From: a virus
Taxonomy: Duplodnaviria; Heunggongvirae; Uroviricota; Caudoviricetes
DNA length: 24,594 bases
Virus record (IMG/VR): IMGVR_UViG_2609459839_000005
Direction: 5' to 3' (one strand)
This document shows, one piece after another, positions 1,992 to 18,816 of the stretch. Numbering within the stretch: position 1 is the stretch's first letter; every line of letters starts with the position of its first letter. The translations under genes and the position numbers were made by a program. The notes under the pieces are model-generated. The model was given only the letters and a program-made list of their open reading frames with translations. It did no database searches and was not told the origin of the DNA.

Positions 1992-3095
1992 TTAGGATCC
2001 GATATATTCTGGTTTCATATCTGTCAGTGTCGTTTTATACGCCTCATATAATTCACCCAGATGTGGTCGAGCAGCATTCAGCGTATTTTCCAGAGCAGTA
2101 AATTTTTGTTCTGCTTCTGGATCACCTGATGAAGGCAGGTCATTTATCATCTTCTCGATACTGGCAATAGCATTGAGACGGTGATGACGCCGAACCACTT
2201 TTCCTTTAAGCTCGGCAAAGAATTCGCCGATCTGGTTTTTCTGATCCTCTATCTCTTGGCGTAATGCAGTGGTTTCCTCAGTCGTGGCCGCGCTTTCGAC
2301 ACGCTGCCGGAATTCATCAATCCACGCTTCGTCAATACGCTGTTCGATGGTTTCTGTTCGCTGCTCGCTTACCTCTCTATAATTCTGTACCGGCACAGGA
2401 TTGATGATTTTTTCCTGTGGCTCTTCCAGTTCGTCCGGGGTATACACGCCCAGGATGACGTCAGGACAATAAAGGCGAGCCCAGTATTTCAACGCCAGAT
2501 AGGCGAGCTGTTGTTTCGGGTTTGAGGTCCATAAAGGAGAATTACGCGTAATCACGCTGGAAAGAAACACCGGTTCTCCCCAGGTAATCTCACTTTCACC
2601 GCGAAGAACTGCACCAACTCGAACGGATAGACCATACTCATCTTCACTGGTCCAACATGGGATCGTTTCTTTTTTCTCATAGATTCCGCCTCCTTTGGCC
2701 GTTTTCTTAACGGTCTCCACTCGGGTGCGAGAGCATTTCTCCCAGTCTCCCTCGTACTTGTAATGGAAGCGGCCTACAATTGCACTTGAGCTAGAGATCA
2801 CAGCGTTAACAAGTTGTGCTTCATAACCCAGAACTCCGTTTACCAGGTGTGTTTTCTGAGCCACAGCGTAGGGGTTCATGCCCCATTGCATGGCTTGCAT
2901 GATGATTGCCATGCAGTCGGCAGGTTTTCCGCGAAGGTGATCGGGAACTGTGACGGTGGCCTGTGACATCAACCCGGCTACTTCCTGAAGTTGCGTCAAC
3001 GCCTGAACGTTAAAAATAGTGTTACTGGCAGAAATGGTATTTGGTGTCTGCTCTGTCGTGATGATATTGGTATTTTGCATGGTCAGGTTCTCCAT
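1992..3095 (-). CDS. recT: RecT/Bet-superfamily single-strand annealing protein, 367 aa
   Basis: Core resembles RecT/Bet annealing proteins (…CMAIIMQAMQWGMNPY…GVLGYEAQL…). Its ATG overlaps the stop of the upstream exonuclease gene (TAATG), typical of recE-recT coupling. Longer than K-12 RecT, with a C-terminal extension. Confidence 0.68.
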   Translation of the reverse strand: MENLTMQNTNIITTEQTPNTISASNTIFNVQALTQLQEVAGLMSQATVTVPDHLRGKPADCMAIIMQAMQWGMNPYAVAQKTHLVNGVLGYEAQLVNAVISSSSAIVGRFHYKYEGDWEKCSRTRVETVKKTAKGGGIYEKKETIPCWTSEDEYGLSVRVGAVLRGESEITWGEPVFLSSVITRNSPLWTSNPKQQLAYLALKYWARLYCPDVILGVYTPDELEEPQEKIINPVPVQNYREVSEQRTETIEQRIDEAWIDEFRQRVESAATTEETTALRQEIEDQKNQIGEFFAELKGKVVRRHHRLNAIASIEKMINDLPSSGDPEAEQKFTALENTLNAARPHLGELYEAYKTTLTDMKPEYIGS

Positions 3096-6000
3096 TAAGC
3101 CAGATGCAGTGCTTCAAGACGACGAAGATCAAAGTCGTTTAATTCGTCGGTATAACTTTCGGTAATCGGTGCTGGCCAGTTGTTTGTCTCTAGGGCTTCG
3201 TTTATCTGGCGTAGCGTCCGGCGATATTCCTGTCGACCAAGTTCCAGGAGTTCCTGCGAGGCTTCCACGACTGCCACCCAGTGATAGCCAACATCTTTGT
3301 TGACGAAGATCCAGAAAAATTTGTCCAGGTTTGCCACATCACAATACATTGCGGCGCTGAGGTGATAATCACGCTCAATAATTTCACGGTGCAGGCGATC
3401 TTTAAGTCGTTCCTGCCGCACATAACCGAGGCTGACTGACTTCACGTCAGCGCAAATGCTTTCGTATGGCAGCCGGATTTCGATATCAGGACGGACCCTG
3501 ATTTCCAGCCCGGTTTCTTCATCAAACCCGAAATAGCTGATTTCAGATTTGCGATCCGGGTGGTTGAGTAGCCTTGCTGCATCGGTATTGTTTTGCAGTG
3601 CCGCGTGAATATTTTTTGCCTGTTCATACATATCCGCACTGATAAACGTTTTCCCGGCGTTTTCTTCTTGCTGTCGTTTTTGCCAGTCCTCCAGTGTCAC
3701 CAGTTCCGGGCGAATTTTCCGTGCGATTTCGGTTAATTGCTCTTTTGTGCCACTGATGTTGTAAGGCAACGATTTAGCACGTTCTTTTTTTGCCAGTTCT
3801 GGATCTACAGTTTCAATTTGCTCCAGAAGCTGCTCCCGTGTTCCACTGGTTTTCAGCAGAGGAGGGAGGCTTGCGTTGTATTCTTTAATACAGGCTTTCA
3901 TTGCTGATGCTGTGTGTTTTTCCCCCTCAGGAATACGCCGAAATTCCTCCGGAAGCGAACCGTAAAGGATGCCTGTTTCTTCGGCCCCAGCGCTTACCGA
4001 CAGTGGCTGTATAAGAATGCTGTTGTAGCTTTCGATCCACTCTTTCATCTGCTCTGGTGTCATCAGTGATGGCAGACTGGCATTGTGTTTTTTAATGATG
4101 GTGATCAGTTCGTTAGAAGTAGTAACCACATATTCAGGAACCGGTACCGGAATGGCATATTCATCAGCGAATTTATCCGTTTCCAGAACATAGCTGTGAA
4201 TGATCCGCCCACGCAGCAATGCATCACTTTCCTCGTTCGGAATAGTCCCGGCAATGTGCCGCCCGTGGTAATACATCAGACTGATGCGGGCATCCTTCAG
4301 CATTGTGCTGCTTATTCCGTTGGCGGAGTGATAAACCTCGTTCGGGAGGTTTTCATAGCGGCCAGGCTCGAAATATGACGGCCACATGATTTCAGTTGCT
4401 ACATTAGCTGACGCTTCACCAGTTTCATCACTGCAATCGTGATGCGGATGGTTGCCAGCATTCTCCTTGTGTGGATGTTCAGCGCTTTCCATTTCCTCCG
4501 GATCATTTTCCTGAACTTCAACCTGATTCTCTTCATCGAATGTTTCCTGGTATGTTGCGTCGCCCATCACCGCACCACAATCAGGGCAGTTGCCGCCGTC
4601 GGTCTGACCGCAGGCGGCGCAGGCTTTTTCCGGCTCCTGTTGCGTTATTGGCTCGGATTGTTTCGTTTCTGGCTCGTTTTGTTGCGCATTTCGGCTGTTT
4701 TGTTCCGCTTTCTGGTCGTTCTGTTCCGTTTCTTGCTGGTTCTGATTCACTGAATCGCGGGTTTCAATCCCCTTCACCCATTTCGGATCGTTCGGGTCGC
4801 TAATTCCGTCAACAAATTCACCACGTGATGCAGCAAGTAATTTATCGGCATCGACAGGATTTTTTGATGGAATGTTTTTCCGGGCTTCATGGAGTTCTGC
4901 CCGCAGTTCCTGATATTTCGCATCAACAGAATTTACCTGTGACTGAGCATCCAGCGGCTGCGTGTCCTGATGATGTTCAGTTGCATTCGGTTCCACTGTT
5001 TCAGCCGTTGCCTGTTCATCTGCCATTGCGCCAGATGGTTGTGGTTTTTCTTCATCGTCCTGTTTTCCTTCTTCTGTCACACGCTGCGGCATCGGGGCAG
5101 AGGAGCGACCGCAGGCAATATCCACAATTTCCGGATCAGGGTTGGCATGATCAGTTTCAGTCAGTACTTTGTTCAGATATTCAGTGACGTGCGCGGGGAT
5201 GACCTCGATCCCAATTGGTGCTTCTTTCACGGACGCAACCACGGTGGCGCGGGAATAATCCAGCCCGCCAGGCATGGTGATGAATTTGTCGCGGAAAACA
5301 GAAAAGGGCGGTTTATTTTCAGCGATAATTTCCTCAATGCGTTTAGCGTGTGCCGGATGAAGGTTATAGATGTCCACGTCCATTGAACGGGCCAGTACGC
5401 CAGTGGCTACATCGCGTGCCAGTGACGTCAGATCGTGGACGAAACCTTCGCCGCGATCGGTGAGGTTCCCGCCGCCAGCATTAGCACCGGAAGCCGTGCG
5501 AGTGATGCGTGAAACACGATTCCCTTTCCTCCATTCTTTTGTCAGAAGACCACGATCAATGTGTTCGGTATCCAGCCAGGCTGAAATGAAATTCTTAAAT
5601 TCATAGGGCTGATGTTTTTTCGTGATAGAGAAAACTGCCTTAATTGCATCAGTCAGGCGGAGCAGGGCGGCATTATCCAGAGTTGTCGGTTCTGCCATGC
5701 CGCGTATGGCCAACAGCAGATTCTGGACATAGCTGTTTTCCTGGTCCATCTCAAGAGCAGTAATGTGTTCGCGTTGTTCACGGGTGGCATGATGCAGGTA
5801 TTTCCGATCCCCGGCCGCATACGTAAAAATGTGCAGAAGACGCTGTGTGAACCGCAAAGTGGCTACAGAAACTTCGCAATCCTGGCAATCCCCGTGGGCG
5901 TCTGCCTGCGCGTTTTCTTCCTGGCCTCCCGCCAGTTCTTTGGTTTCCTGGGTATTCTCCTGATGGTGAACGTCGTCTGGTGCTGCACCCGGTTTTAGTT

Positions 6001-6262
6001 CCCAGGTGATGGAGTCCTTGCCGAGTTGATAGCGTTCACACCACGTAAAATCGATCTCACCTTCAGGGGGAAGGTCATTAACGACAGGAAAATTAGTTGC
6101 AACAGTTTTAAAATAGTTGCTCAGTTTTTTACCTGACTTAACGATCAGGTAGTCCAGAGTGGCACTGGTCGATTCAAAATCGTCGCTTGCCCACAGGACG
6201 ACGTCAGGTTCACCGGATGATTTTTTCGCTTTCCGTAAAAGGAAGAGTGGTTTTGTGCTCAT
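3095..6262 (-). CDS. recE: RecE-like exodeoxyribonuclease VIII, 1055 aa, with acidic low-complexity central linker
   Basis: Large ORF ahead of the annealing-protein gene. C-terminal third looks like a PD-(D/E)xK-type exonuclease domain (…[11 protein letters not shown]…DVKSVS…). Central Q/E/D-rich segment holds a CAACG…CPDCG Cys4 cluster. Start at 6262 follows GAGG. Confidence 0.68.
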
Positions 6263-6361
6263 TGTTTTTTAACCTCAACTCAGATTAAAATTACTGCGAG
6301 TGATGAATAAATGTCCCAGGTTCTTCACTCAGGCCTGCACACTGTGCAGGCTTTCTTTTTT

Positions 6362-6637
6362 TCAGATTTCACCGTTTAATTTCATTGCGATCAGAGTTGC
6401 CAGAAATCCAGCTTTTTTTTCTGCGGGCAGATTCTTTCCGATGTAAACCAGGCACATTTTTGTGACACCTTCATCAAGTGTTTTAACGTTGCCTGATGGA
6501 CCGTCGATATCAACCACAGTGAAAGGGGTTTCTTTATTTTCTGTTTTAATCACGTAGCCAATGCGCTTTCCTTCCAGATTCACCTCGTGAACAATGTCAT
6601 CGGTAGTTACAACAGTGGCTTCATAATTGGTAATCAT
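6362..6637 (-). CDS. racC: RacC-like small protein (91 aa)
   Basis: Track ORF runs to 6685, but the ATG at 6637 (MITNYEATVV...) follows AAGGAG with a 6-nt spacer. Sits between recE-like and kilR-like genes as in Rac. Confidence 0.55.
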   Translation of the reverse strand: MITNYEATVVTTDDIVHEVNLEGKRIGYVIKTENKETPFTVVDIDGPSGNVKTLDEGVTKMCLVYIGKNLPAEKKAGFLATLIAMKLNGEI

Positions 6638-6711
6638 GTTTTTCTCCTTAATTAAGGTTGAGCGAATCTCTACCATTTCTGGCATAAATTCAGTTTCGAA
6701 TAGTCAATTAA

Positions 6712-6882
6712 TTAAAGTTCGTGTGCCATCTGGTCTTTTTCGGCACAGATTTCACTACAATATTTTTTCATTTCCGTCGTTGGTATAACTCCACGCATGA
6801 AATGAAGTGGTCTTGTAATGATTTTGCTTTCTTCAATTTCTTTATTGCAAAGGTGATAAGCACATTTTATTTTCTTAGTCAT
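6712..6882 (-). CDS. ydaE: Small Cys-rich protein (YdaE-like; 56-58 aa)
   Basis: Not in the ORF track (below 60 aa). Hand translation of the minus strand gives (MV)[56 protein letters not shown] with a CxxxxC…CxxxC pattern. Alternative start at 6888. Confidence 0.45.
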   Translation of the reverse strand: MTKKIKCAYHLCNKEIEESKIITRPLHFMRGVIPTTEMKKYCSEICAEKDQMAHEL

Positions 6883-7103
6883 TACCATGACTCCGCCTTT
6901 ACAGGTAAACCATCACGACCGAGGAAGACTTTAATCATGCAGTCAGAAATGCATGTTTTTGTAGTCAGGCTACGAATATAAAGTTTTCGCTTTTTAATAT
7001 TGTTTGCCGAGGCGATATATGTCCGACCTTCATGAAGAACATAATCGCCAGGGGTCACACACTGACGTGGTATTTCATCAGTTCCGAAGTGATGAGCAAT
7101 CAT
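6882..7103 (-). CDS. kilR: KilR-like cell-division inhibitor (73 aa)
   Basis: ATG at 7103 ([15 protein letters not shown]...) follows GGAG with a 6-nt spacer; the track start at 7115 lacks an SD. Small basic protein in the kil position of a Rac-like early operon. Confidence 0.65.
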
Positions 7104-7511
7104 AATTATCTCCATTTTTACAAATGAATTTTGTCGATGCGGTGCCTGGTGCCTCCAGGTGACGTTAACCAGTTAACAATTAACGCCGGATAATCCACCC
7201 ATAACACTGATGCTTTTAACTGCGCCGCGTGCGCTTAGCCGCATTCACCGCATCACAAAATTCACTTTAAAAAGGGGCGGCAGGGCAGCTACGGAGTAGA
7301 ACTGGTGCCGCCAAAAACTAGACACAGCAATGTCGTTATTTACAACCGGAGGCGCACTCCCACCATTTAAATTTAACAGACAAGACCGACTCTTTATGGA
7401 TACCGGAAATGCGCCTTCGTATTGTGCCCGGTTTTATTTCACCACCTCCGGGCTTTGGTGGCCTCGGCTATACCCCTACAGCAAGAATATTGAATTAATC
7501 CAATAAATGGT

Positions 7512-7664
7512 TTAGCTGGTATTTTTGGCAAGCCAGCGACGTGCGCCAGCTTCGGTTTTAAACGATTTGCTTTTGGTATACGTCATGGCGGTGAATGTGC
7601 CGTCCTGATTGGGAAACACGCCACATACCAGAGATTCGTTGTTGCCAAGATCGATAGTATCCAT
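7512..7664 (-). CDS. Small hypothetical protein (about 50 aa; YdaF-like by position)
   Basis: Internal ATG at 7664 (MDTIDLGNNESLVCGV...) is preceded by GAGG; track ORF is 7512..7727. No motif recognised. Confidence 0.35.
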   Translation of the reverse strand: MDTIDLGNNESLVCGVFPNQDGTFTAMTYTKSKSFKTEAGARRWLAKNTS

Positions 7665-7913
7665 GTTGACCTCATTTCCCCTTAACGCCGGGTGGCGGAA
7701 CGTTTTATCTACTGCGCTTTGTATCAATCAACAACTGCCGTCATGTTCGTATGCCTCAGGCTGGCTACTTAGCCCTGTTCAGTGGCTGGATAACTCGAGG
7801 TATTGTCCTGCCGTTCTCTGGTGGGGCGTTGTTTGGATATGTTTATTAAACACAATTCGTTTTCTCATGTCAACACGAAGTGTGTTTTATAGTGGGTGTC
7901 ATATGATGATGGT

Positions 7914-7939
7914 ACAAAAAAGCCCGCTGATAGCGGGCT
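7914..7939 (-). terminator. Rho-independent terminator downstream of the repressor gene
   Basis: Hairpin AGCCCGC-tgata-GCGGGCT, followed on the minus strand by a U-run (plus-strand A-run 7915-7920), 30 nt past the repressor stop. Confidence 0.55.
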
Positions 7940-7969
7940 GATTGGCATATTACTGTGATAGCAAGATCA

Positions 7970-8389
7970 TTACTCCGGTGGGGGATTATCTTTAAGCCTG
8001 CCTCTCAAATATTTTTCTACATACTCATCGATTTCTTTTAGCCGGACTTCAAATAGCTCAATCATTCGTTGTTGTTCTGAGCCCGGTAGCTGGTTAAACA
8101 ACTCAAGAAGTTTTCGTTGGGATTCATTTAACCACAATTCAGAAGATTCCTGTTCTCCAAAGAGGAGCTCAGGAGGAGATATGCCAAGTGCCTTTCCCAA
8201 TACGACAGCGTCATGCACTCCAACATTTCTGCTGCCCGCCTCATAGTTACCTATACGCGATTGCGTCCATCCGCAGATTTCAGCAAGTTTTCCTTGAGAT
8301 AAACCAAGCTTCTGCCTGCGCTCTTTAAGACGCATTGCAATTTTGTCATTGAGCCTACTAGCGGCAATTTTTTCGTTTTCTTTTTCCAT
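7970..8389 (-). CDS. racR: XRE-family HTH repressor (cI-like, RacR-like), 139 aa
   Basis: N-terminal helix-turn-helix (…LKERRQKLGLSQGKLAEICGWTQSRIGNYEAG…). Divergent from a Cro-like gene across a 96-bp region with inverted repeats. Confidence 0.75.
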   Translation of the reverse strand: MEKENEKIAASRLNDKIAMRLKERRQKLGLSQGKLAEICGWTQSRIGNYEAGSRNVGVHDAVVLGKALGISPPELLFGEQESSELWLNESQRKLLELFNQLPGSEQQRMIELFEVRLKEIDEYVEKYLRGRLKDNPPPE

Positions 8390-8400
8390 TGCATCCTTGT

Positions 8401-8461
8401 ATCACGAATCGTGATTTACATAAAACACAAAACAGCTTGACCATATAACACAAGATGTGTT
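8401..8461. promoter_or_regulatory. Immunity-region operator/promoter: two inverted repeats within the divergent intergenic region
   Basis: Perfect palindrome ATCACGA-a-TCGTGAT (8401-8415) and AACACA-aga-TGTGTT (8447-8461). The second lies in the spacer of a plus-strand promoter candidate (TTGACC 8437-8442, TTTAAA about 8460-8465). Confidence 0.4.
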
Positions 8462-8485
8462 TAAAATTGTCATCGGAGGTTTTCA

Positions 8486-9000
8486 ATGAACAAAATTTCA
8501 ACATATCGAAAACAGCTTGGGCTGTCTCAAAGACAACTTGCTGTTCAGTTACCACATCACGCAAAGTGGCTTCAACGCTGGCAATGGCAATCAGCAAAGG
8601 TCGTCTGATTCGCGTAAATCAGGGCGGTAAATTTCGTTACTGCATACCGGGCGATAATTTACCAGCAGAGCCGAAAGCAGCATCGGTAGCGGAAACTGAT
8701 GGTAAGGCCTTTCCTCAGCCCGCAGGTGTTGCATTACCAGTACAGGAGGCTGCAACACAGGAAGATATTAAAACAGAAACGGTGGTGGACATTGTGCAAT
8801 CGCTGCCATCGTTTACTGAAACGCGAGCGGATGACCTGGTTTTACCATCGCTGCATATGGCAAACCGCGAACTGCGTCGGGCGAAAAATCATGTCCAGAA
8901 GTGGGAGCGAGTCTGCGCCGCGCTGCGGGAGCTGAACAAGCACCGGGATATTGTTCGACAGATTGTCGATTCCTCCAGTCGTATTGTGTCGGAAAAGTGA
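8486..9000 (+). CDS. Cro/YdaS-like early gene with disrupted reading frame (possible pseudogene)
   Basis: ATG at 8486 with GGAGG 8 nt upstream opens [22 protein letters not shown]…, which stops after 40 codons (TGA 8606-8608). The long track ORF 8455..9000 is in a different frame and has no SD at its own ATG. Confidence 0.4.
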
Positions 9001-9015
9001 TTGCCGGAGGCACCT

Positions 9016-9438
9016 ATGGCAAAAGTATTTACACCAGAAGAGCGGGAAAAAATTAAAGGGCAGGTTGTTGAACTTGTACGTCTGAGCGGTCGCGAGACGT
9101 TACGGGCTCTGGAGGCTAAAACCGGTGCATCAAGGTATTACATAAGCACTCTCGCCAGAGAACTGGTCGCCAGTGGTGATGTTTACAATTCAGGCTACGG
9201 ATTATTCCCGTCTGAGCAGGCGCGTAAAGACTGGCAAAACGCCCGCAAAAAACTCTCAAGGGCAAATCTGAAGAAACCATCTGTGGTTGATCCGGATCTT
9301 ATCTGGTCATTACCAGACGGAGAAATACGCCGCTACAACAGGCGTCTGAACATAATTTGCCGTGAGTGCCGGAAGAGTGAGGTTATGCAGCGAGTGCTGG
9401 CGTTTTATCAGGGGAAATTTCAGGAGGTGATGCTGTGA
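9016..9438 (+). CDS. Hypothetical early protein, 140 aa (YdaT-like by size and position)
   Basis: ATG at 9016 (MAKVFTPEEREKIKG…) is preceded by GGAGG; track ORF starts at 9001. Position after the cro-like gene. Confidence 0.5.
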   Translation: MAKVFTPEEREKIKGQVVELVRLSGRETLRALEAKTGASRYYISTLARELVASGDVYNSGYGLFPSEQARKDWQNARKKLSRANLKKPSVVDPDLIWSLPDGEIRRYNRRLNIICRECRKSEVMQRVLAFYQGKFQEVML

Positions 9439-9689
9439 GCGAATCAAAATGTCAGGTTAATGGCAATCAGATAGAACCGTGTACGGCACTGGCAAAATCC
9501 CTTGAGCATGATGCTGAATACACGACGCGAAAAGGTCTGCTGATATACAAAATCTGGAATGAGAATTTAACTCGCGACCCTGATTTGGTGATGTTGCGTT
9601 CCGGTGAATTTTCTAAATTACCAGTGCGGGTTTCATTTTGTCCGTTCTGTGGTGAAAGTCTGAAAACGTGGGAGAACAGAAATGAATGA
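9435..9689 (+). CDS. Small Cys-motif protein (84 aa), putative zinc-ribbon
   Basis: GTG start overlapping the previous stop (GTGA), with CAGGAGG upstream. Contains KC…PC near the N-terminus and CPFCG near the C-terminus, the same motif as in the Lar-like protein. Confidence 0.45.
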   Translation: MSESKCQVNGNQIEPCTALAKSLEHDAEYTTRKGLLIYKIWNENLTRDPDLVMLRSGEFSKLPVRVSFCPFCGESLKTWENRNE

Positions 9690-9993
9690 AATTAGAGAAA
9701 TACCAGTAGTACGTGATGAATATGGCTGCTGGACGCATCCTGAATATGAAAAATTCTGTGATGGTAGAGAACTTATTTCAACGAAAGAGTTTAACGCCTG
9801 GATGGAGGAAAATAATCTTCAATACGTCCTCTGCTTCAGAGATGAAGGATGTGCTGACCTTGATGCGTGTGATGCTGATATTTCTGCATGGGAACCGGAA
9901 CGACCAGAGGGCAATGGATGGTTTATTGGTTCAATACATGACACCGAAGATGGCCCGGTTTGTGTATGGCTGAGAAATAAGGCCGAAGCATAA
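9682..9993 (+). CDS. Small strongly acidic hypothetical protein (103 aa)
   Basis: ATG overlaps the previous stop (ATGAATGA). About 24 Asp+Glu versus 9 Lys+Arg, plus scattered Cys. Confidence 0.5.
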   Translation: MNEIREIPVVRDEYGCWTHPEYEKFCDGRELISTKEFNAWMEENNLQYVLCFRDEGCADLDACDADISAWEPERPEGNGWFIGSIHDTEDGPVCVWLRNKAEA

Positions 9994-10298
9994 AGGCTAT
10001 AAACCGACTAACAACTAAATACTGAAGATTTAAATCAGAAACGATTTTTATTAAATCCTTAACCGGAGGGATTCTGCACCCTCAGAACATCAGGAGGCCG
10101 TCTGAAAGGGCGGAACAGATAATGCTTACGTTGAAACATTTTATCGACATACCAACATGGTTAGCCGTCATTGCTTTTGTTAAAATACACATCCACTTTT
10201 CTGTGCAATGTTTAACCACTGGTCATATCAAATGGCATTCATGCGAACCATGATATAGAATCATGGCTTGAGAGAGTCGATGAAAGCGCAACTATGGT

Positions 10299-10871
10299 AT
10301 GAGAGACATTGATGTAAGAAAGGCTGTGCATGCCAAGATTCTGAGAGATCATCATAAAGATCCTGACACCCTAATCATTGATGAGTTTACGATGAATCTA
10401 GGGGCTAGCAGAGCTGATATAGCAGTGATCAATGGGCTTATACATGGTTATGAGTTGAAGAGCAAGAGTGATAACTTGCTCAGATTACCAGCGCAGGTGC
10501 AACATTACTCATCAGTGATGGATAAAGTAACGTTGGTTGTCTCTGATTGCCATCTTTATGATGCTTTAAGCATAGTTCCATCATGGTGGGGGATAAAGCA
10601 AGTTACGCAAGGTGCACGGCAAGGTATCCATTTAAAAACAATTCGAACTAGCAAGTTGAATCCACAAGTGGACAAACTTTCCTTAACAATGCTTCTTTGG
10701 AAAGATGAATTGCTTTCCCTATTAAGTGATGTAGGGGAGCTACAGAATTTGAAAAATAAACCTAAACGCGTCTTATGGTCAAAACTCGCCAATAGTATGG
10801 ATGTTGGCGAGCTTCGTGAAGCTGTTCGAGTTAAACTTAAAGCCCGTAAAGAGTGGCGAGTTGCTCAATAA
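10299..10871 (+). CDS. PD-(D/E)xK-motif nuclease-like protein, 190 aa (first gene of candidate defence cassette)
   Basis: Translation has …IDEFTMNLGASRADIAVINGLIHGYELKSKSD…: Asp in a hydrophobic strand, then E-L-K about 12 residues later. AT-rich (about 35-40% GC in sampled 60-nt stretches). Weak SD, so the start is uncertain. Confidence 0.6.
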   Translation: MRDIDVRKAVHAKILRDHHKDPDTLIIDEFTMNLGASRADIAVINGLIHGYELKSKSDNLLRLPAQVQHYSSVMDKVTLVVSDCHLYDALSIVPSWWGIKQVTQGARQGIHLKTIRTSKLNPQVDKLSLTMLLWKDELLSLLSDVGELQNLKNKPKRVLWSKLANSMDVGELREAVRVKLKARKEWRVAQ

Positions 10872-11934
10872 CCTTAGTTATGTGATGGTTTTGCCCAATC
10901 CTACGCCATACCTCTGGGCTACCAAATTTATAGTTACCAGAGGGATTGGCTTTGTAGGCTTGATACTCGTTTGCATAATATTCTATGTCTCTATCTCCCG
11001 CACAGAATGTAGGCCCTGAATATTCTCGATGAGCAAGAATATCCTCACTATGTTTACCATATTGTTCATAACCAAAGCGATTAGCTACTCTTCCTCGAAA
11101 TACCCAAAAGTCATTATCTCCAGAGTATCTGACGCTGGCAGATACGCTAGGGAATCGCGTCGAAAGCCTATTAAAGTCGGGGTGCTGTACTCCATAATCA
11201 CTATAAATCACATTTCTGGCAAGTTCTTTTCTATTCATTAAACTCTGCCATAAAATCCACTCGATTCGAGGTTGAGAATATAGACCAACAGAAATATCAC
11301 TGAGATCTGTAGGAAATGAACCCCCAGAAAGAATCACTTTTCTGTATTCATTGAGGTGCGCCAGATTGTTTATCAATCCCATTGCCAAAGTATATAGTTC
11401 GCCGGAATTAAGTTTATCCTCGGTTAACTCATCTCTTAAGTCAATAATTATATCAATATTTGATAAAGGAATTCCCAGATGATTAATGTAATGCGTTATT
11501 AATTGTGGGTTAACCAGATCTAACGTGGTTAATCTCAAGCATATTTCATTCTGCATTAATTCATCAATCGCTCTTTTATAGTTAGATGGGCGAGTTGGTG
11601 AACTGACAGGAATAACTCTTATCCCCATATCTCTAACTTGATTAACCGCATTTATTATAGGGTAATGATCTTCAGGAGAAATAAAATGCTCTTCAATTAA
11701 TAATCCATCAATATAAACACCTTGCATATCTGAGCAAGATTTTGAGACTTTCTTTCCGAACTCTATAAGAGTCTCGTTATAACTCTTTAAGGCAATACCT
11801 GAATCAGGGTCAATTGGCACTGGTTCAATTTCGAGTAATGGCAAAATTTTTGATTTCTTTTCAATGGATAGCTGCGATAAAGCTGATAACTCAGAACGTT
11901 TCGCTTTCAGAATAGGAATATATGAAATTGTCAT
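10837..11934 (-). CDS. 365-aa partner protein of the cassette (possibly beta/sce7725-like family)
   Basis: Long clean AT-rich ORF (MTISYIPILKAKRSELSALSQL…) converging on the 190-aa gene, with 35 bp of 3' overlap. SD-like AAGG 7 nt ahead of the ATG. Family assignment is recollection only. Confidence 0.62.
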   Translation of the reverse strand: MTISYIPILKAKRSELSALSQLSIEKKSKILPLLEIEPVPIDPDSGIALKSYNETLIEFGKKVSKSCSDMQGVYIDGLLIEEHFISPEDHYPIINAVNQVRDMGIRVIPVSSPTRPSNYKRAIDELMQNEICLRLTTLDLVNPQLITHYINHLGIPLSNIDIIIDLRDELTEDKLNSGELYTLAMGLINNLAHLNEYRKVILSGGSFPTDLSDISVGLYSQPRIEWILWQSLMNRKELARNVIYSDYGVQHPDFNRLSTRFPSVSASVRYSGDNDFWVFRGRVANRFGYEQYGKHSEDILAHREYSGPTFCAGDRDIEYYANEYQAYKANPSGNYKFGSPEVWRRIGQNHHITKVIEQLATLYGL

Positions 11935-12286
11935 GTTAATACCTTATACAGAATCAATTAACAATTAATGGTTCTTCGGACATTGAAATTTATATCGCAA
12001 AAATTGGCAAACTCTCCTCGACTACTCACTTGTGGGTATCCTGGCGTAAAAGGAATGACTTGGCAATACCCGGTGTGATCATAAGTCATTGAAAATGATC
12101 ATTTTTATCAGTCTTTCTTCCATGATGAATGCTAATGCCATTTGATTTGTTGAGGTGAAAACTGTTAAAAATCAAAACGATGTAATTGAAATGAACGTTC
12201 GGTAGCATTCACGCTTTAAATGTTTCTTTTGTGCTGATTGGATGAATTTTGGTCACTTATGATGAGAGATGTTGCAGGAAAAGAAG

Positions 12287-12315
12287 TTGGCATTGATCTA
12301 TTGGATAGTTAGAAT
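12287..12315 (+). promoter_or_regulatory. Sigma70-type promoter candidate for the hok-family mRNA
   Basis: TTGGCA (12287-12292), 17-bp spacer, TAGAAT (12310-12315). Predicted transcript of about 415 nt to the terminator at about 12737, typical of hok mRNAs. Confidence 0.4.
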
Positions 12316-12490
12316 TGCTGCGGGTGCTTGAGGCTATCTGCCTCAGGCATGAACACCAAAAGGCAGATAGAGAAAAGCCCCAGTTAACATTACGCGTCCT
12401 GCAAGACGTTTAACATTAATCTGAGGCCATATCTATGCGACACATAGAGATTAGCCTCTTACGGACCGAAAGGTCAAGGAGAAGCAGGCT

Positions 12491-12646
12491 ATGAAGCAGC
12501 AAAAGGCGATGCTAATCGCCCTGATCGTCATCTGTTTAACCGTCATAGTGACGGCACTGGTAACGAGGAAAGACCTCTGCGAGGTACGAATCCGAACCGG
12601 CCAGACGGAGGTCGCTGTCTTCACAGCTTACGAACCTGAGGAGTAA
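12491..12646 (+). CDS. Hok/Gef-family type I toxin (51 aa, single TM segment)
   Basis: Not in the ORF track (below 60 aa). Hand translation: MKQQKAMLIALIVICLTVIVTALVTRKDLCEVRIRTGQTEVAVFTAYEPEE, with the Hok/Gef signature LVTRKDLCEV…RTGQ…EVAVF…AYE. AAGGAG lies 8-13 nt upstream. Confidence 0.82.
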   Translation: MKQQKAMLIALIVICLTVIVTALVTRKDLCEVRIRTGQTEVAVFTAYEPEE

Positions 12647-12713
12647 GAGACCAGGCGAGGGAGAAATCCCTCGCCACCTCTCATGTGTCAGGCATCCTCA
12701 ACGCACCCGCACT

Positions 12714-12737
12714 AAACCCGCTTCGGCGGGTTTTTTG
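12714..12737 (+). terminator. Rho-independent terminator of the hok-family transcript
   Basis: AAACCCGC-ttcg-GCGGGTTTTTT: GC-rich stem, tetraloop and T-run, about 70 nt past the hok stop. Confidence 0.65.
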
Positions 12738-12921
12738 TTGCGTGCTGAATGCGCAGGGTGAAAAATAACCATATATTTGATTATATACACAACAAAAAAT
12801 AAAAGTCATTGTACCTGCACATTAAATAATCAAATATACAGCGTGAAATAAATGTTTTTCAGATTAATATTTTTGTCTCTATGTGGATATAACCGTTTGT
12901 ACTTATAAACTCGGAGGCATC

Positions 12922-13134
12922 GTGGAAAAAATAAAGAAACTATTTAGTTGCAAATACGCAGTCATACGTCGTGATGACCTGTCAGTTATAGTCGAAATGG
13001 ATTACTTCCCTGACCCCCCAAAATCAATGATGTATCGTAATGGTCGAAAGGCAATTTTTTTACCGATGAGGGTAAGTGACATTATGGGAAATGATAAACT
13101 GCTGGATGAATTGCGAGTCAGAGCATCCTGTTAG
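12922..13134 (+). CDS. Hypothetical protein (about 70 aa)
   Basis: Track ORF 12883..13134. GTG at 12922 follows GGAGG (short spacer); the ATG at 12883 has no SD. No motif recognised. Confidence 0.3.
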   Translation: MEKIKKLFSCKYAVIRRDDLSVIVEMDYFPDPPKSMMYRNGRKAIFLPMRVSDIMGNDKLLDELRVRASC

Positions 13135-13205
13135 TATTGGCATTAATTCTGGTATACTACATAACGGGCTGAACACCCATTCTACTGCGCCAGCGGAGAA
13201 CTACG

Positions 13206-13805
13206 ATGGCGCATATACAACTGGTCAAACAAACCTCTTCCGGATTACTTCTCCCGGCGACGCCGGAGAGTTGCGATTTTTTGCATCAAATCAAAATAGG
13301 TGAGTGGATACACGCAGACTTTAAGCGTGTGCGTAACTACGCATTCCACAAGCGTTTTTTCAAACTCCTGCAACTGGGATTCGATTACTGGACTCCGGTC
13401 GGTGGGGCGATCACGCCTCGCGAACGAAAACTGGTATCAGGCTTCGTTGATTACCTGTGCGAATCAGTAGGTCGGGAACACACTCCAGCCCTGAGTGATG
13501 CCGCAGAGCAATACCTTAATACAGTTGCGACATGCAGAACCCGGGATACGGCATTGCTAAAGTCGTTTGACGCTTTCCGCGAGTGGGTAACCATTCAGGC
13601 CGGATTTTACACCGAGCATATTTATCCTGATGGTAGTCGTGGGCGCAGGGCAAAATCTATCGCATTTGCGAACATGGACGAAACCGAGTTTCAGCAGGTT
13701 TATAAATCTGTACTGAATGTGCTGTGGAACTGGATCCTGTTCCGTAAATTTTCCTCTCCGGAGGAAGTCGAAAATGTGGCCGCGCAGTTACTGGAGTTTG
13801 CGTAA
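13206..13805 (+). CDS. Nin-region phage protein, 199 aa (possibly DUF1367/YbcN-like)
   Basis: ATG preceded by GGAGA. First gene of a tightly packed plus-strand block that ends in a Q-like gene. Confidence 0.5.
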   Translation: MAHIQLVKQTSSGLLLPATPESCDFLHQIKIGEWIHADFKRVRNYAFHKRFFKLLQLGFDYWTPVGGAITPRERKLVSGFVDYLCESVGREHTPALSDAAEQYLNTVATCRTRDTALLKSFDAFREWVTIQAGFYTEHIYPDGSRGRRAKSIAFANMDETEFQQVYKSVLNVLWNWILFRKFSSPEEVENVAAQLLEFA

Positions 13806-14095
13806 TGGTGGATTTACGTAAAGCGGCGCGGGGGCAGATGTGCACCGTCAGAATTCCTGGCTACTGCAATCACAATCCCGAAACTTCTGTGCTGGCGCAT
13901 TACAGGCTGGCGGGGACGTGCGGAACAGCGATAAAGCCACACGATATGCAGGCAGCGATTGCCTGTAGCTCGTGCCACGATTTAATCGACGGGCGGGTAA
14001 AAACCAGCGATTACACCAAAGAAGAATTACGCCTGATGCATGCAGAAGGTGTTTTTCGCACACAAGAAATCTGGAGAAAGGAGGGATATTTATGA
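13805..14095 (+). CDS. YbcO-like small Cys/His-rich protein (DUF1364-type putative nuclease), 96 aa
   Basis: MVDLRKAARGQMCTVRIPGYCNHNPETSVLAHYRL…IACSSCHDLIDGR, with conserved Cys/His spacing as recalled for DLP12 YbcO. Start overlaps the previous stop. Confidence 0.55.
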   Translation: MVDLRKAARGQMCTVRIPGYCNHNPETSVLAHYRLAGTCGTAIKPHDMQAAIACSSCHDLIDGRVKTSDYTKEELRLMHAEGVFRTQEIWRKEGYL

Positions 14096-14634
14096 TTTAC
14101 CCAACGAATACAGGAAAAAGCGGAGAACACCTTCGTCTCACCACGCTGGAAAGTGTCTGGATTCAGGGAAAACTGCGCATGTGGGGGCGCTGGTCGTATA
14201 TTGGCGGCGGTAAGACGGGGAATATGTTCAACCAGTTGTTGGCCTCTAAAAAGCTGACAAAAACGGCAATTAACGAGGCGCTCCGGAGGATGAAAAAAGC
14301 AGGTCTGAACAAGTCTGAACTTGAGGCTTTTTTGCGGGATATGATTAACGGTAAGCAAAAGAGCTGGCTGGCGCATTGTACTGATGCAGAGGCGTTATGT
14401 ATTGATCGGGTGATTAGTGAAGTGCTGGCAGAACACCCAGGATTGATTTTTATCCTCCGGCAACGATATGAAGGAAGGGGGATGACTAAGCGAAAAATGG
14501 CTGAATTGCTAAATGATGCACACCCTGAGTGGTGTTTTAGCACATGCGAAAAGCGAATTGCTAATTGGTTGGCTGTTGCTGAGTATGCGCTGTACGTTCC
14601 CATGCGAGAATCATTCGCTCAAAAAATAGCTTGA
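14092..14634 (+). CDS. Putative late-gene antiterminator (Q-like), 180 aa
   Basis: ATG at 14092 overlaps the upstream stop (ATGA) and follows AGGAGG. Last gene before a non-coding stretch with a hairpin plus T-run, tRNAs and lysis genes. Assignment is by position; no motif confirmed. Confidence 0.45.
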   Translation: MIYPTNTGKSGEHLRLTTLESVWIQGKLRMWGRWSYIGGGKTGNMFNQLLASKKLTKTAINEALRRMKKAGLNKSELEAFLRDMINGKQKSWLAHCTDAEALCIDRVISEVLAEHPGLIFILRQRYEGRGMTKRKMAELLNDAHPEWCFSTCEKRIANWLAVAEYALYVPMRESFAQKIA

Positions 14635-14990
14635 TTTTTTACGCATAAACTGCTTCAATTCCGGTATGCTTCGCAAAGCTGTATCGCGAGGCGAATAGCA
14701 GTTTTGAACATCTAAAGACCCCGTTTAATGCGGGTTTTTTTATGCCCAAAAACGAAGTAGTGCGTTAAAATGTGATGGTCGGGAGTATACAGACTTTTAT
14801 ATAGCACTGCGTAAAAATCAATTTATCCGGGGTAAATGTCAATTTGCTTATTAAAAAAAACAAAAAGATAAATTTATAGCAATTGTGTTTCTTTGGGTTG
14901 AAAGTTTTAATGTCGTCAGTATTATCTGAAGCGGTTCTGAGGAGGGGGTTTCCATTGCTCGGCCACGATACTTCCGAGGAACCAATTAAC

Positions 14991-15066
<76 letters not shown>

Positions 15067-15069
15067 TAT

Positions 15070-15144
<75 letters not shown>

Positions 15145-15190
15145 GCAGAGGACGATGCTAGGCTGTTTCAGGCACTGACACATTATATGT

Positions 15191-15469
15191 GTGGGATGTT
15201 TTACCCTAACTCCTTACCACATCCTGTTCTGTAATGAATATTATTTATTACGGTACCAGTGTTGTTTTTTTACAATAGTGGAATGGTGCATTACTGGTGG
15301 AGATTTGTATTTCCTGGCAGGGCTGGTAATGTATCATTCCGGTGTTGTAAATAACACCCCAGAGACGTTCCTCAGTGCGAGGGTGGTTGAAAGAGTCGGT
15401 TTTGCGGGAAACCACAGCATCCATGCAGGACTGGATGTTTCGGGAGGCACCCGACGTCTCTGGTCATAA
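15191..15469 (+). CDS. Hypothetical ORF (92 aa), doubtful
   Basis: Track ORF only; no SD and odd composition. Sits where cargo genes lie in some lambdoid phages, but shows no similarity to Stx A subunits as I recall them. Confidence 0.2.
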   Translation: MGCFTLTPYHILFCNEYYLLRYQCCFFTIVEWCITGGDLYFLAGLVMYHSGVVNNTPETFLSARVVERVGFAGNHSIHAGLDVSGGTRRLWS

Positions 15470-15508
15470 TAAAATCATAGTGTTCTCTTCATGCCATTTT
15501 ATGCCATA

Positions 15509-15534
15509 GACCGCCACGCCAGGCGGTTTTTTTT
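15509..15534 (+). terminator. Rho-independent terminator
   Basis: CCGCC-acgcca-GGCGG followed by a T8 run. Confidence 0.55.
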
Positions 15535-15716
15535 ATTCAGAATTCAGTATTTATGCGGCTCGCTACGGCGGGCCTTTTTCATATCCGCGCCACGCCCGGC
15601 GCATATCAAAAACCACAGAGCCTTTCAGGGGTGAGCTTACGGGATGGTCAGTGTGACTTTCTCTGTGGGCTGGTCACCCCCGGGCGCAGGCCCACCCACT
15701 AAGAGGAAACGTCACT

Positions 15717-16143
15717 ATGTTTGGTATTTTCAAAAAGAAAACCCGCAAGGCCATTACTGAAGTGAAGAAAATGGAGAACCGCGACGCGGTGGAGGCGACC
15801 GTCTGGGGTGCATATTCCATTGCATACGCTGACGGCACCTGTGACGCGAAAGAAATCGCGGTACTGGAAAAAAACCATTGCAGCACTTCCTGTCTTTGCG
15901 CCGTTCTCCGGTGAGATTGCACAAATGAGTGCAAATATCCGCGCCCGTTATGAAGCGTCGCCGCGTTCTGCCAATGCCGAAGCTCTTCGTCAGCTGGCTG
16001 ATGTTGCCGGTACTGATGATGCAGTTAATGTGCTGTGCCTGTGTCTGGATATCGCTGACCAGGACGGTATCGGTCAGGAAGAAGAAGCGCAACTGAAGAA
16101 AATTGCGCAGGCGCTGCAGTTGCCGCTGGAGCAGTACCTGTGA
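15717..16143 (+). pseudogene. TerB-like protein gene interrupted by a +1 frameshift in an A7 tract
   Basis: Track ORFs 15717..15914 and 15808..16143 join into one TerB-like protein (…AYADGTCDAKEIAVLEK|TIAALPVF…DDAVNVLCLCLDIADQDGIGQEEEAQLKKIAQALQLP) if the A-run at 15868-15874 were 6 or 9 nt. GAGG upstream of the ATG. Confidence 0.5.
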
Positions 16144-16292
16144 AAAGTGCGCGCCTTGTGCTGGCTGTCATCCTGTTGTTTCTGGTAGTGGTGGTTGATT
16201 TCACCGGACGACTGATGTCGGTGCTGGCAGATGGTGTGCTGGTGGCGATGGCGCTGGTCGTGCTCCGGCCTTTACTGCGTAAATCTGAATAA
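16140..16292 (+). CDS. Small hydrophobic membrane peptide (about 50 aa), GTG start
   Basis: Hand translation VKSARLVLAVILLFLVVVVDFTGRLMSVLADGVLVAMALVVLRPLLRKSE. GTG overlaps the TerB-like stop (GTGA). No SD, so speculative. Confidence 0.3.
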   Translation: MKSARLVLAVILLFLVVVVDFTGRLMSVLADGVLVAMALVVLRPLLRKSE

Positions 16293-16302
16293 CATCACAC
16301 AA

Positions 16303-16340
16303 AAGGCATCTGCGGATGCCTTTGACGGGGTGTTTTTTAC
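16303..16340 (+). terminator. Hairpin plus T-run (terminator-like)
   Basis: GGCATC-tgcg-GATGCC followed by TTTgacggggtgTTTTTT. The interrupted T-run makes this weak. Confidence 0.3.
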
Positions 16341-16378
16341 GGGTCGCTGGTGGCCCTTTTTTATTTTCAGGAGGAAGT

Positions 16379-16771
16379 ATGTCTGAACCCTTATCCGGTT
16401 CCGGCACGGCTGCGGCGCTGGGTGGCGCGACGGTATTCGGGCTGTTTACCGGGATGGATTTCGGGATTGTGTTTGGCGCGTTCGCCGGGGCGTTATTTGT
16501 GGCAACGATGCCGCAGTCACTTTCAGTCTGGCGCGTGGTGGCACATTTTCTGGTGTCGTTTATTGTCGGCGTGCTGGGAGCGCGTGTGCTGTCAGCCTGG
16601 ATTGCATCAAAAACAGGGTATGACGGTACATCAGCAGATGCGCTTTGCGCGGTGCTGGTCTCGGTTGTGTCGGTGAAGATTCTCTCGTTCATCCACCAGC
16701 AGGATATTGCATCGCTGGTGTCCGGTGTGTTCTCCCGCCTGCGGGGTGGAGGAGGCGGCAATGTTAAGTAA
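16379..16771 (+). CDS. Holin-like membrane protein (about 130 aa, Gly/Ala-rich TM segments)
   Basis: ATG at 16379 after AGGAGG. Three predicted hydrophobic segments, directly upstream of a second membrane protein and the endolysin remnant. Confidence 0.5.
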   Translation: MSEPLSGSGTAAALGGATVFGLFTGMDFGIVFGAFAGALFVATMPQSLSVWRVVAHFLVSFIVGVLGARVLSAWIASKTGYDGTSADALCAVLVSVVSVKILSFIHQQDIASLVSGVFSRLRGGGGGNVK

Positions 16772-17036
16772 CCTTCCCGGATTGCTGAATGTGGTGTTAT
16801 GCACAGTTATCGTGCTGACGCTCTTTTTTTATCGTCGCCGTGATTCCAGACATAAACCGCTGGTGTCATGGCTGGCCTGGCTGCTGATGCTGCTGTATGC
16901 CTTTGCGCCCCTCAGTTATCTGTGTGGTCGCCCGTTAGCAACGGGCTGGCTGGAAGTGTTTTTTAACCTGCTGTTCTGCGTGCTGGTGATACGCGCACGC
17001 GGGAACGTCACAAAAATCTTTCCATTGTTGAGGTGA
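16761..17036 (+). CDS. Second small membrane protein of the lysis cassette (holin/antiholin-like, 91 aa)
   Basis: ATG at 16761 after GGAGG, overlapping the previous gene. Two or three TM segments and a basic stretch (YRRRDSRHK). Confidence 0.45.
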   Translation: MLSNLPGLLNVVLCTVIVLTLFFYRRRDSRHKPLVSWLAWLLMLLYAFAPLSYLCGRPLATGWLEVFFNLLFCVLVIRARGNVTKIFPLLR

Positions 17037-17038
17037 AT

Positions 17039-17254
17039 ATGTCGGGTAAATTCAGATTTAGTCGTCGCAGCGAAAAGAATCTGGAGGGCGTTAAACCACA
17101 GCTGGTTGCTGTCGTTCGCCGTGCGCTGGAGCTGACGGAGGTTGATTTCGGTATTACGGAAGGGCTGCGCACGAAAGAACGCCAGAAACAGCTGGTCGCG
17201 GAAGGGAAAAGCCAGACCATGAACAGCCGCCAGCTTTATAGCGTGGATAGATAA
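17039..17254 (+). pseudogene. Truncated endolysin (T5-type L-alanyl-D-glutamate peptidase, M15 family), N-terminal about 70 aa only
   Basis: MSGKFRFSRRSEKNLEGVKPQLVAVVRRALELTEVDFGITEGLRTKERQ… matches my recollection of the T5 Lys N-terminus. ORF stops at …TMNSRQLYSVDR, where the catalytic SxHxxGxAxD motif should be (His replaced by Gln). Confidence 0.6.
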
Positions 17255-17615
17255 CAATGCCGAGTCTTGAGGAATTATTCCTGCGCAGCAGTGCATCGTG
17301 CAGCAGATTTACCCGGACTACTATGTGAACATGGTTCAGCAACAGTTTGCCGGCTATTTTGCATCATTGGCAATTTCAAAGGTAGATGGAGCAGATAACC
17401 CCACCTATAACATCGATGTTGTGTTTTTTAATGGGACCAGTTACCGGACGCAGGTGCCGGTATGAATCACAGTTTTATGATAAAACTTTTACCTTGGTTT
17501 GGAGTGCTGTAGAGAGATATTTTAGGGGAGGCGAGTAATTTTCTAAGCTGGAGCATATTGACATATATTATTTCGGATTTGCAAAATACAGATTGTAACC
17601 ATGGAGGAGACAAGC

Positions 17616-18776
17616 ATGGAAAATTTTGCAAATAAGTTAAAAATACACACAGAGCATGTTGCAAAAATGGGGGTGTTTTGTACAACTGAAGAAACGACAA
17701 AACAAGCACTCATTATGCCATTACTAGATATTCTTGGTTTTACTCCGTATGATCCAAGAAAAGTCAAAGCTGAGTATAGTGCTGACTTCCCCGGGGTTAA
17801 GGCTAATGAACGGGTTGATTACGCTTTATTTTGTCATGATGTTCCTGTGATGTTCATTGAGGCGAAATCGTTTTCAGAACAAATTGATAATCACTGCCCA
17901 CAGCTATCAAGATATTTTAATTCAACACCGGAAGTTACTATATCAGCCATTACAAATGGTGTTGAATGGCGTTTTTTTACGGATTTGAAACAAAAAAACA
18001 TAATGGATTCAACGCCGTTTTTAAAATTAAGAATGGATTCTCTAACTCACTCCGATATTACACAATTATTTCGTTTTCGTTATGATAAATTCAAACCAGA
18101 GGCTTTACGGACACTGGCTGAAGAAAGTGTTTATTTGAATTCATTTACTAAAACAATCAGTTCTAGTCTTCGTGAAGTTGATCTGGAGTTTGTTCGATAT
18201 GTTGCTAGTCGTTCAAATATTGAGAGGCAACTTAATCAGAGATTTCTTGAGTTCGTGACTCCATTAGTTAAACAGGCCGTTGAGCGCGCTGTTAGCGCAA
18301 TGGTGGTTTCCGGGCTATCTACACAACCGGTAGAGCAAACTAAAGAAAATGATGCAACGGATACACAAGTTAATAACGCCATTGTTGATGAAGAAAACCC
18401 CAACATAATAACCACAGCCAAAGAATTGGAGCTATTTGAAAGGGTAAAACAAATCATACAAACAGAAGATAATATAGAATATAAAGATACTGAGTCATAT
18501 TTCGGTGTACTATTGAATGGTAAAACTAATAGATGGCTGTTAAGATTTTATGATAAAAAATCTTCATTTATAACTTTACCTATTTCGCTTAGTGAAGTTC
18601 AGTTGAATGAAATAAGACGAGCTCGACTTGATACGGATGGTAAAAGGATACATATAACTAATCCGGAAGATATACTTCGCATATCTGGTTTGATTCTGGA
18701 TTCATACGAGTATGTTAAAAATGATGATAATTTCCGCCGAGGGTCCAGAGTGAGCAGTTTAGAAGAGGTTGAATAA
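17616..18776 (+). CDS. 386-aa protein with N-terminal HsdR-N/Mrr-like PD-ExK nuclease motif and uncharacterised C-terminal domain
   Basis: N-terminus …TKQALIMPLLDILGF…KAEYSADFPGVKANERVDYALFCH-DVPVMFIEAKS… gives an E…D-x13-E-A-K arrangement. ATG at 17616 after GGAGGA. AT-rich (about 35% GC in a sampled stretch), own promoter candidate and a strong terminator. Confidence 0.68.
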   Translation: MENFANKLKIHTEHVAKMGVFCTTEETTKQALIMPLLDILGFTPYDPRKVKAEYSADFPGVKANERVDYALFCHDVPVMFIEAKSFSEQIDNHCPQLSRYFNSTPEVTISAITNGVEWRFFTDLKQKNIMDSTPFLKLRMDSLTHSDITQLFRFRYDKFKPEALRTLAEESVYLNSFTKTISSSLREVDLEFVRYVASRSNIERQLNQRFLEFVTPLVKQAVERAVSAMVVSGLSTQPVEQTKENDATDTQVNNAIVDEENPNIITTAKELELFERVKQIIQTEDNIEYKDTESYFGVLLNGKTNRWLLRFYDKKSSFITLPISLSEVQLNEIRRARLDTDGKRIHITNPEDILRISGLILDSYEYVKNDDNFRRGSRVSSLEEVE

Positions 18777-18778
18777 GT

Positions 18779-18806
18779 AAAAAACCCGCGAAAGCGGGTT
18801 TTTTAA
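18779..18806 (+). terminator. Rho-independent terminator
   Basis: AAAACCCGC-gaaa-GCGGGTTTTTT immediately after the stop of the 386-aa gene. Confidence 0.7.
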
Positions 18807-18816
18807 TGGAGTAAAT

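Follow-up and report, generated by a model that had tools for sequence, protein, structure and literature searches.

How did a Rac-type prophage of Escherichia coli come to be without replication genes, and did the AT-rich genes that lie between its early genes and its nin/Q region take their place? This question is raised by IMG/VR virus record IMGVR_UViG_2609459839_000005, of which we analysed a stretch of 24,594 nucleotides (hereafter the window). The window runs collinear to two relatives, a prophage in E. coli 214-4 (L001, NZ_CP025840) and phage Rac-SA53 (L002, KU052037); its gene order is intR, xis, ralR, recT, recE, kilR, the repressor, early genes, a region with DUF1367, YbcO and Q-like genes, tRNAs and holins. 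A preliminary description, made from the sequence, had found the replication genes missing, and indeed none are present in the window. It had further proposed that an AT-rich island at 9994-12740, carrying a nuclease gene and a hok locus, stood in the place of the replication module after an insertion coupled to a deletion. We consider it likely that two independent events lie behind this arrangement, namely a plain deletion and the occupation of a cargo slot by a cassette whose core, the convergent gene pair beta and cII, has a putative anti-phage role. The cargo, the hotspot and the defective prophage are therefore retained from the earlier account, whereas the position it gave to the loss and the cause it assigned are not.

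The loss was placed by blastn alignment with the 214-4 prophage. Two blocks were recovered, joining window 1153-8551 to 1-7398 of the relative at 99.7% identity and window 8550-17235 to 10551-19242 at 98.7%. To the left of 17235 the sole break in collinearity lies at 8550/8551, where ~3,154 bp (~7399-10552 of the relative) are absent from the window. The genes annotated in that interval, and lost here, are the 3′ part of a cro-like gene, ydaT, two hypothetical genes, a DnaT-like (O-type) gene, 'replication protein P' and the first third of a DUF1627 (ydaW-like) gene. The junction reads GTTCAGTTA followed by CCACATC, and the parental sequences have only the 2-bp microhomology TA in common. On this alignment the loss has the form of a clean deletion of that length, and it is because of this ~3.15-kb deletion that the replication genes are missing. 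When 5,426 complete E. coli genomes were probed with 400 bp from across the junction, no match ran through it, all of them ending at 8550/8551. The identical junction was found on an independent read-assembly contig, SRR1186308_275 (from SRR1186308), and the genotype is therefore real but rare. Translation across the junction shows that the cro-like gene keeps 22 native codons before running out of frame into the ydaW remnant, with a product of 40 aa. Moreover, an extra A near 8463 shifts the frame of an upstream ATG to that of the DUF1627 remnant, giving an accidental 181-aa fusion open reading frame (ORF) at 8455-9000. An independent deletion was observed in a Qin-like prophage of E. coli K_EC180 (L018 3135-3458), in which a truncated ydaT is fused to a truncated DUF977 gene and the replication genes are gone. 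It seems that loss of the replication module recurs as a way in which prophages decay.

The position of the break does not fit an island standing where the replication module used to be. In the relatives, the replication genes follow the cro-like gene and precede the DUF1627/DUF977 genes, which puts them upstream of the two small early genes that precede the AT-rich segment. Between the deletion and the segment, 1.44 kb of collinear backbone (8551-9993) is preserved, comprising the DUF1627 remnant, DUF977/lygF and the two small genes. Alignment with the relative puts the breakpoint at 8550/8551 and not at the edges of the segment, and the short direct repeats anticipated at about 9.99 kb and 12.74 kb do not flank it. 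Moreover, five of the five other cassette-bearing prophages that we opened (L001, L002, L006, L103 and L104) have the cassette at the same position and keep O-like plus P-like or DnaC-like genes upstream of DUF977. The proposed coupling of insertion to deletion was abandoned in view of this intervening backbone and of these five carriers.

The segment itself occupies a variable slot. Local blastn against phages with other cargo revealed two conserved borders, a 64-bp landmark on the left and, on the right, the hok/sok locus from 12310 to ~12735; in one phage the right border begins at 12286, not 12310. The landmark is common to phages 666R9 and 640R1, which differ from the window on both sides of it. 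We counted 2,960 prophage sites with it, spread over 2,261 of the 5,426 genomes (42%), and it is never annotated; matches stop at 10113, and the first cargo gene typically begins 8-15 nt past it. It could serve as a boundary or a linker, or else as a signal for translation or transcription. A structured RNA was considered and rejected, as the predicted fold does not exceed shuffled sequence in stability (z -0.69) and Rfam gave no match at the landmark.

The preliminary description had suggested moron or hotspot cargo, and this was borne out. The beta/cII cassette was found at just 94 of the 2,960 landmark sites (3%), in 93 genomes, and the other sites carry unrelated genes. Alternatives past the landmark (seen in L007, L009, L016, L017, L019 and L020) include DUF4014 with DUF551 in an O157:H7 prophage, DUF7167 with small genes, a hypothetical gene with an HNH endonuclease gene, an IS66 element, and decayed genes in a Qin-like prophage. 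The cassette is at least 99% identical in 92 of its 93 genomes despite differing backbones, which are Rac-like (recE/kilR) or Qin-like (dicB/ydfABC), and the nin regions to its right also vary among carriers. As the cassette is shared across such slots while replication genes stay upstream of it, the cargo reading is supported and the replacement reading refuted. No direct repeats or target-site duplications were found at the cassette borders, and the simplest route of acquisition would be homologous exchange via the conserved borders. Judged from these comparisons, 10114-12285 is a mosaic cargo unit exchanged among lambdoid prophages, and its low-GC genes are accessory cargo in a variable slot of those of Rac/Qin type. 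An IS1 element lies between the landmark and cII in Rac-SA53 (L002 14749-15514) and in at least one other strain (CAU16175); its annotated 8-bp target duplication in Rac-SA53 is AAACATTT (window 10134-10141).

Base composition agrees with part of what had been described. The G+C content (GC) is 0.401 in 9994-12740 and 0.456 in the window as a whole, which places the segment among the lowest 6% of stretches of its size, and GC is not uniform along the DNA. However, several shorter patches elsewhere are equally AT-rich, and the low GC of the segment is concentrated in 10114-12309. The 2,172 bp at 10114-12285 (GC 0.378) are the minimum for any stretch that long in the window, and this minimum leaves out the hok/sok part, which had been counted as AT-rich. 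The hok/sok locus is a separate mosaic module of normal GC, common to many lambdoid phages regardless of cargo, and from its sequence it looks intact (Table 1). The K-12 hokD/relF copy presumably lacks the upstream sok region that the window copy retains.

The gene content of the segment was described correctly as far as the description went: a nuclease gene (cII) and hok, the latter with its sok region, lie in it, and the nin/Q region with DUF1367, YbcO and Q-like genes resumes after it. A Beta-family gene, convergent to cII, is also present, and the conserved C-termini of the two products are encoded on opposite strands of 10837-10871. The cII product matches NCBIfam sce7726_fam (1.6e-56) and the PADLOC model 'cll' (2.4e-28), and its relatives bear PF26915, Phage_P4_cII. 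In a cross-phylum alignment E29, D40, E52-x-K54 and Q66 are invariant and Y70 is nearly so, and the predicted fold is restriction-endonuclease-like with a D...(D/E)xK catalytic motif. Because its catalytic residues are conserved, cII is predicted to be an active PD-(D/E)xK nuclease, and the label 'nuclease' is a fair one. Beta is a full-length member of PF14350 (Pfam 3.2e-52) that lies nearest to the PADLOC PD-Lambda-2_C models (1.7e-41 and 5.3e-38), the P4 'beta' model scoring just 1.5e-4. Sequence searches for solved structures returned none for cII or Beta, and literature searches for sce7726, PF14350 or PF26915 returned only passing annotation mentions. Upstream of both convergent genes we noted the arms of a 16-nt inverted repeat (10224-10239 and 12134-12149, 15/16 complementary), the left arm of which overlaps a promoter-like -35 site ahead of cII. 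As a conserved element this repeat was rejected, since it is not kept in five other cassettes; it may be a lineage-specific operator or a product of chance.

The convergent pair is not confined to E. coli. Scanning one genome per species with a beta alignment yielded 78 loci, from phyla that include Patescibacteria, Acidobacteriota, Planctomycetota, Chloroflexota, Bacillota and Myxococcota. A convergent, overlapping cII gene is present at all loci with room for it downstream (77/77), with a stop-to-stop frame overlap of 16-133 nt (mode 43 nt), which is unusually strict for a gene pair spread across phyla. What lies upstream of beta varies. At 36 of the 78 loci there is a HigB_toxin gene together with an Xre-Peptidase_M78 gene (PADLOC PD-Lambda-2_A 3.6e-41, PD-Lambda-2_B 2.9e-140), and a convergent overlapping cII-family nuclease gene follows the HigB-like, Xre-peptidase and Beta genes in 36/36 of these (among L036-L099; e.g. 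L036 2456-5062 and L052 583-2904). A peptidase-type gene in which no HigB gene was detected alongside was found at 15 loci, three of them with little upstream sequence. The pair stands bare at 24 loci, with a further 3 at contig ends, and this group includes all Enterobacterales and Bacillota loci. No gop gene was found at any of the 78 loci.

Individual elements show the same layout in differing surroundings. Convergent beta and cII genes with a 3′-end overlap of 32-89 nt were found in the window, Gordonia phage Powerball, a Dickeya P2-like prophage, a Paenibacillus element, a metagenomic element and a Photorhabdus lambdoid prophage. The pair lies near the integrase gene in the Gordonia phage, in the slot between gpA and the portal gene in the P2-like prophage, and also between lysis and terminase genes in lambdoid prophages. 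In lambda-like prophages, the space between the lysis genes and terminase Nu1 holds another E. coli allele of the bare pair, with a cII 54% identical. Within the window, tblastn with P4 gop gave a best E of 2.6. A profile of PD-lambda-2 component A (HigB-like toxin), built from the 36 loci, had no match in the six-frame ORFs at E up to 10, and component B (an Xre helix-turn-helix domain fused to Peptidase_M78) had none either; remnants of gop, HigB-like or Xre-peptidase genes were likewise sought in the window and not found. Because the pair is shared while gop, A and B are all absent from the window, the cassette is the minimal form of the module that underlies Gop-beta-cII and PD-lambda-2-type loci.

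Table 1. Features at the deletion junction and in the cargo slot (positions in the window).
Feature	Position	Strand	GC	Basis or remark
Truncated cro-like (ydaS/dicC-type) gene	8486..8608	+		ORF list, alignment to L001, translation
Deletion junction	8550..8551			blastn against L001, probe of 5,426 complete genomes, independent contig
3′ remnant of DUF1627 (ydaW-like) gene	8551..9000	+		Pfam DUF1627 1.1e-89, profile positions 17-155 of 155
DUF977/lygF gene	9001..9438	+		backbone, collinear with relatives
Small early gene 1	9435..9689	+		backbone, collinear with relatives
Small early gene 2	9682..9993	+		backbone, collinear with relatives
Conserved non-coding 64-bp landmark, left edge of slot	10050..10113	+		shared with phages of differing flanks
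Low-GC cargo cassette (beta/cII), 2.17 kb	10114..12285			GC minimum; presence in 93/5,426 genomes
cII/sce7726-family protein, 190 aa, predicted PD-(D/E)xK nuclease	10299..10871	+	0.408	
3′-end overlap of convergent cII and beta, 35 nt	10837..10871			
Beta-family protein, 365 aa, predicted TIM barrel	10837..11934	-	0.372	
Spacer	11935-12309		0.349	
Promoter-like site	12287-12315			promoter scan
hok/sok type I toxin-antitoxin locus	12310..12739	+	0.516	
sok/hok leader region	12322-12493			Rfam RF01794, 108 bits against gathering score 59
Leader ORF, 19 codons	12435-12494			stop overlaps hok start (ATG)
hok, 51 aa, intact	12491-12646	+		Pfam HOK_GEF PF01848 1.2e-23
Terminator	12714-12733 plus T run			terminator scan

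The following scheme would account for the locus. One event, the deletion, took the greater part of the cro-like gene along with ydaT, both replication genes (O-like and P-like) and the beginning of ydaW. In the other, the usual variable slot downstream of lygF and the two small genes, opened by the landmark and closed by hok/sok, was filled with the 2.17-kb cassette. Once there, the beta/cII pair may protect the lysogen from other phages, with the nuclease cII as the putative effector and Beta as a sensor of infection, or as a regulator or restrainer of the nuclease. The antisense overlap of the C-termini would keep the two genes linked and could perhaps balance their expression or allow antisense control. 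Lastly, hok/sok might stabilise the element or add post-segregational or abortive killing.

Published work on the related systems bears on this role. The gop-beta-cII system guards against phages lambda and P1, and gop is toxic when beta is absent (PMC9122126). A phage accessory gene sets off cell death via gop-beta-cII (bioRxiv 10.1101/2023.04.06.535777). PD-lambda-2C is necessary to defend against lambda vir and is dispensable for toxin neutralisation (PMC9519451). For the pair studied here, homology, folds, catalytic motif, strict linkage and hotspot mobility are established from sequences and models. By analogy with these systems we lean, if only slightly, towards an anti-phage function. 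Several points weigh against it. The known toxic component of each system, gop in P4 and component B in PD-lambda-2, is absent from the window, and the cassette may be without an effector if cII is not one. PD-lambda-2 was published as three components, with cII not mentioned (PMC9519451). A specific enzyme assignment for Beta by fold had to be dropped, as its matches are to generic TIM barrels alone. The promoter scan gave a weak promoter-like site ahead of cII (10232-10261), such sites being no more frequent than in shuffled sequence, and no site for beta. Moreover, the survey loci were picked by peptide patterns of this beta subfamily, and the figure of 77/77 may overstate universality. We also entertain, tentatively and with more doubt than belief, the wider proposal that the pair is the true conserved core of Gop-beta-cII and PD-lambda-2 and a self-sufficient nuclease-based anti-phage system ranging from Enterobacterales to Patescibacteria. 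If this were true, the published three-gene definitions would describe lineage-specific toxin add-ons, and that of PD-lambda-2 would overlook the cII nuclease.

Other explanations of the locus have to be set against these data. A moron insertion coupled to the deletion, in which the AT-rich island physically took the place of the replication module, would explain why the window is without replication genes and why the island is compositionally foreign. We find it hardly credible, since collinearity with a replication-proficient relative is interrupted only once, 1.44 kb leftward of the island; five prophages with retained replication genes have the island at the same position, and no repeats flank it. 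The low GC could also be a local fluctuation in a mosaic prophage, the genes being ordinary early genes (for recombination or counter-defence, for example) that serve its own lytic cycle. Other parts of the window are as AT-rich, and Mx4 has a cII homologue within a co-directional gene block, as this would allow; yet the cassette is present at just 3% of landmark sites, is at least 99% identical across diverged backbones and moves between unrelated hotspots, and we regard the explanation as very improbable.

The remaining alternatives accept the pair as cargo and differ over its function. It may be an addiction module of the toxin-antitoxin type, one that keeps the prophage stable in the manner of hok/sok and plays no part against other phages. 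P4 beta neutralises the toxicity of gop, both related systems have been described as toxin-antitoxin-like, and the antisense 3′ overlap resembles RNA-controlled toxin-antitoxin loci. Moreover, other toxin-antitoxin loci adjoin the pair, hok here and HicAB in Dickeya and in the Gordonia phage. However, the related systems do protect against phages, and the cassette sits in slots that hold defence genes in other prophages; we think a purely addictive role unlikely. A restriction-modification-like pair is decidedly unlikely in our view. In it a TIM-barrel Beta would modify DNA and cII would cut what is unmodified, the convergent layout timing both as it does in some restriction-modification systems. 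Our preferred reading remains that of two independent events, with a cassette that may act in defence.

The window holds further signs of decay and further accessory genes. Collinearity with strain 214-4 stops at 17235, within the endolysin gene. Beyond this point a low-GC (0.36) gene at 17601-18776 encodes a protein of 391 aa that bears an HSDR_N (type I restriction) domain and may be further cargo, and Baseplate_J-like, tail-fibre and tail-fibre-assembly genes follow it (window ~17235-24594). The terminase, portal and head genes are also missing from the window, which points to a second large deletion between lysis and tail genes. Downstream of the Q-like gene are two tRNA genes (in the 14991-15141 and 15717-16143 region, with a TerB-family gene). 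The TerB-family gene is broken up as two ORFs that overlap, and in strain 214-4 too its annotation records a frameshift. Searches against Rfam found a match to the DicF antisense RNA at 7275-7326 (-), left of the repressor gene (49.9 bits, the gathering score being 48), and a match to RalA at 1557-1735 (+, 224 bits), the antitoxin small RNA of the ralR type I toxin-antitoxin system. With the RalA match and hok/sok, the window therefore has two type I toxin-antitoxin loci.

In summary, the annotation of the window is corrected: the prophage is defective through a plain internal deletion and a second loss of lysis-to-tail genes, and not through displacement by cargo. A very common and recognisable 64-bp landmark opens the cargo slot of Rac/Qin-type prophages. 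Two published defence systems have a strictly linked beta and nuclease core in common, and this core also circulates alone. The cassette therefore offers a simple two-gene construct with which to ask what Beta does and whether cII is the effector.

Each part of the locus has counterparts among known systems. The order of the genes (int, xis, ralR, recET, kilR, repressor and onward) and the decay through internal deletions are those of the Rac and Qin cryptic prophages of E. coli K-12, whereas the breakpoints at 8550/8551 occur in none of the 5,426 complete genomes. The hok/sok locus resembles those of plasmid R1 and of chromosomal hokA-E in its 51-aa Hok/Gef protein and sok-region RNA match, and perhaps in a short leader ORF coupled to the hok start and a terminal hairpin; it differs in being prophage-borne and of the hokD type. 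Moron and defence hotspots of temperate phages, at lambdoid mosaic boundaries and in P2/P4 elements (Rousset 2022), likewise combine conserved flanks with unrelated cargo in each phage, and their cargo is likewise low in GC and near-identical on diverged backbones. The present slot differs from them in its location in Rac/Qin-type prophages, with lygF plus the small early genes on one side and the hok/nin region on the other, and in being marked by a 64-bp landmark for which no name was found.

The closest comparisons are those for the gene pair. Gop-beta-cII of P4 (Ghisotti 1990; Rousset 2022, PMC9122126) also joins a PF14350 Beta to a convergent PF26915 cII/sce7726 protein, as non-essential cargo in a mobile-element hotspot. 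In P4, gop and beta lie on one strand with cII convergent to them, and the orientation of beta and cII in the window agrees with this. However, the window Beta is only ~23% identical to P4 beta, cII has 190 aa here and 264 aa in P4, a 35-nt overlap of the ORFs stands where P4 has a gap of 27 nt, and the host element is a Rac-like lambdoid prophage and not a P4 satellite. As for PD-lambda-2 (Vassallo 2022, PMC9519451), the window Beta matches the models of its component C, and 36 natural PD-lambda-2-type loci in our survey also bear the convergent cII. Taken together, the hotspot and the hok/sok locus are ordinary, while a beta/cII cassette without gop and without components A and B is new as a variant of these systems.

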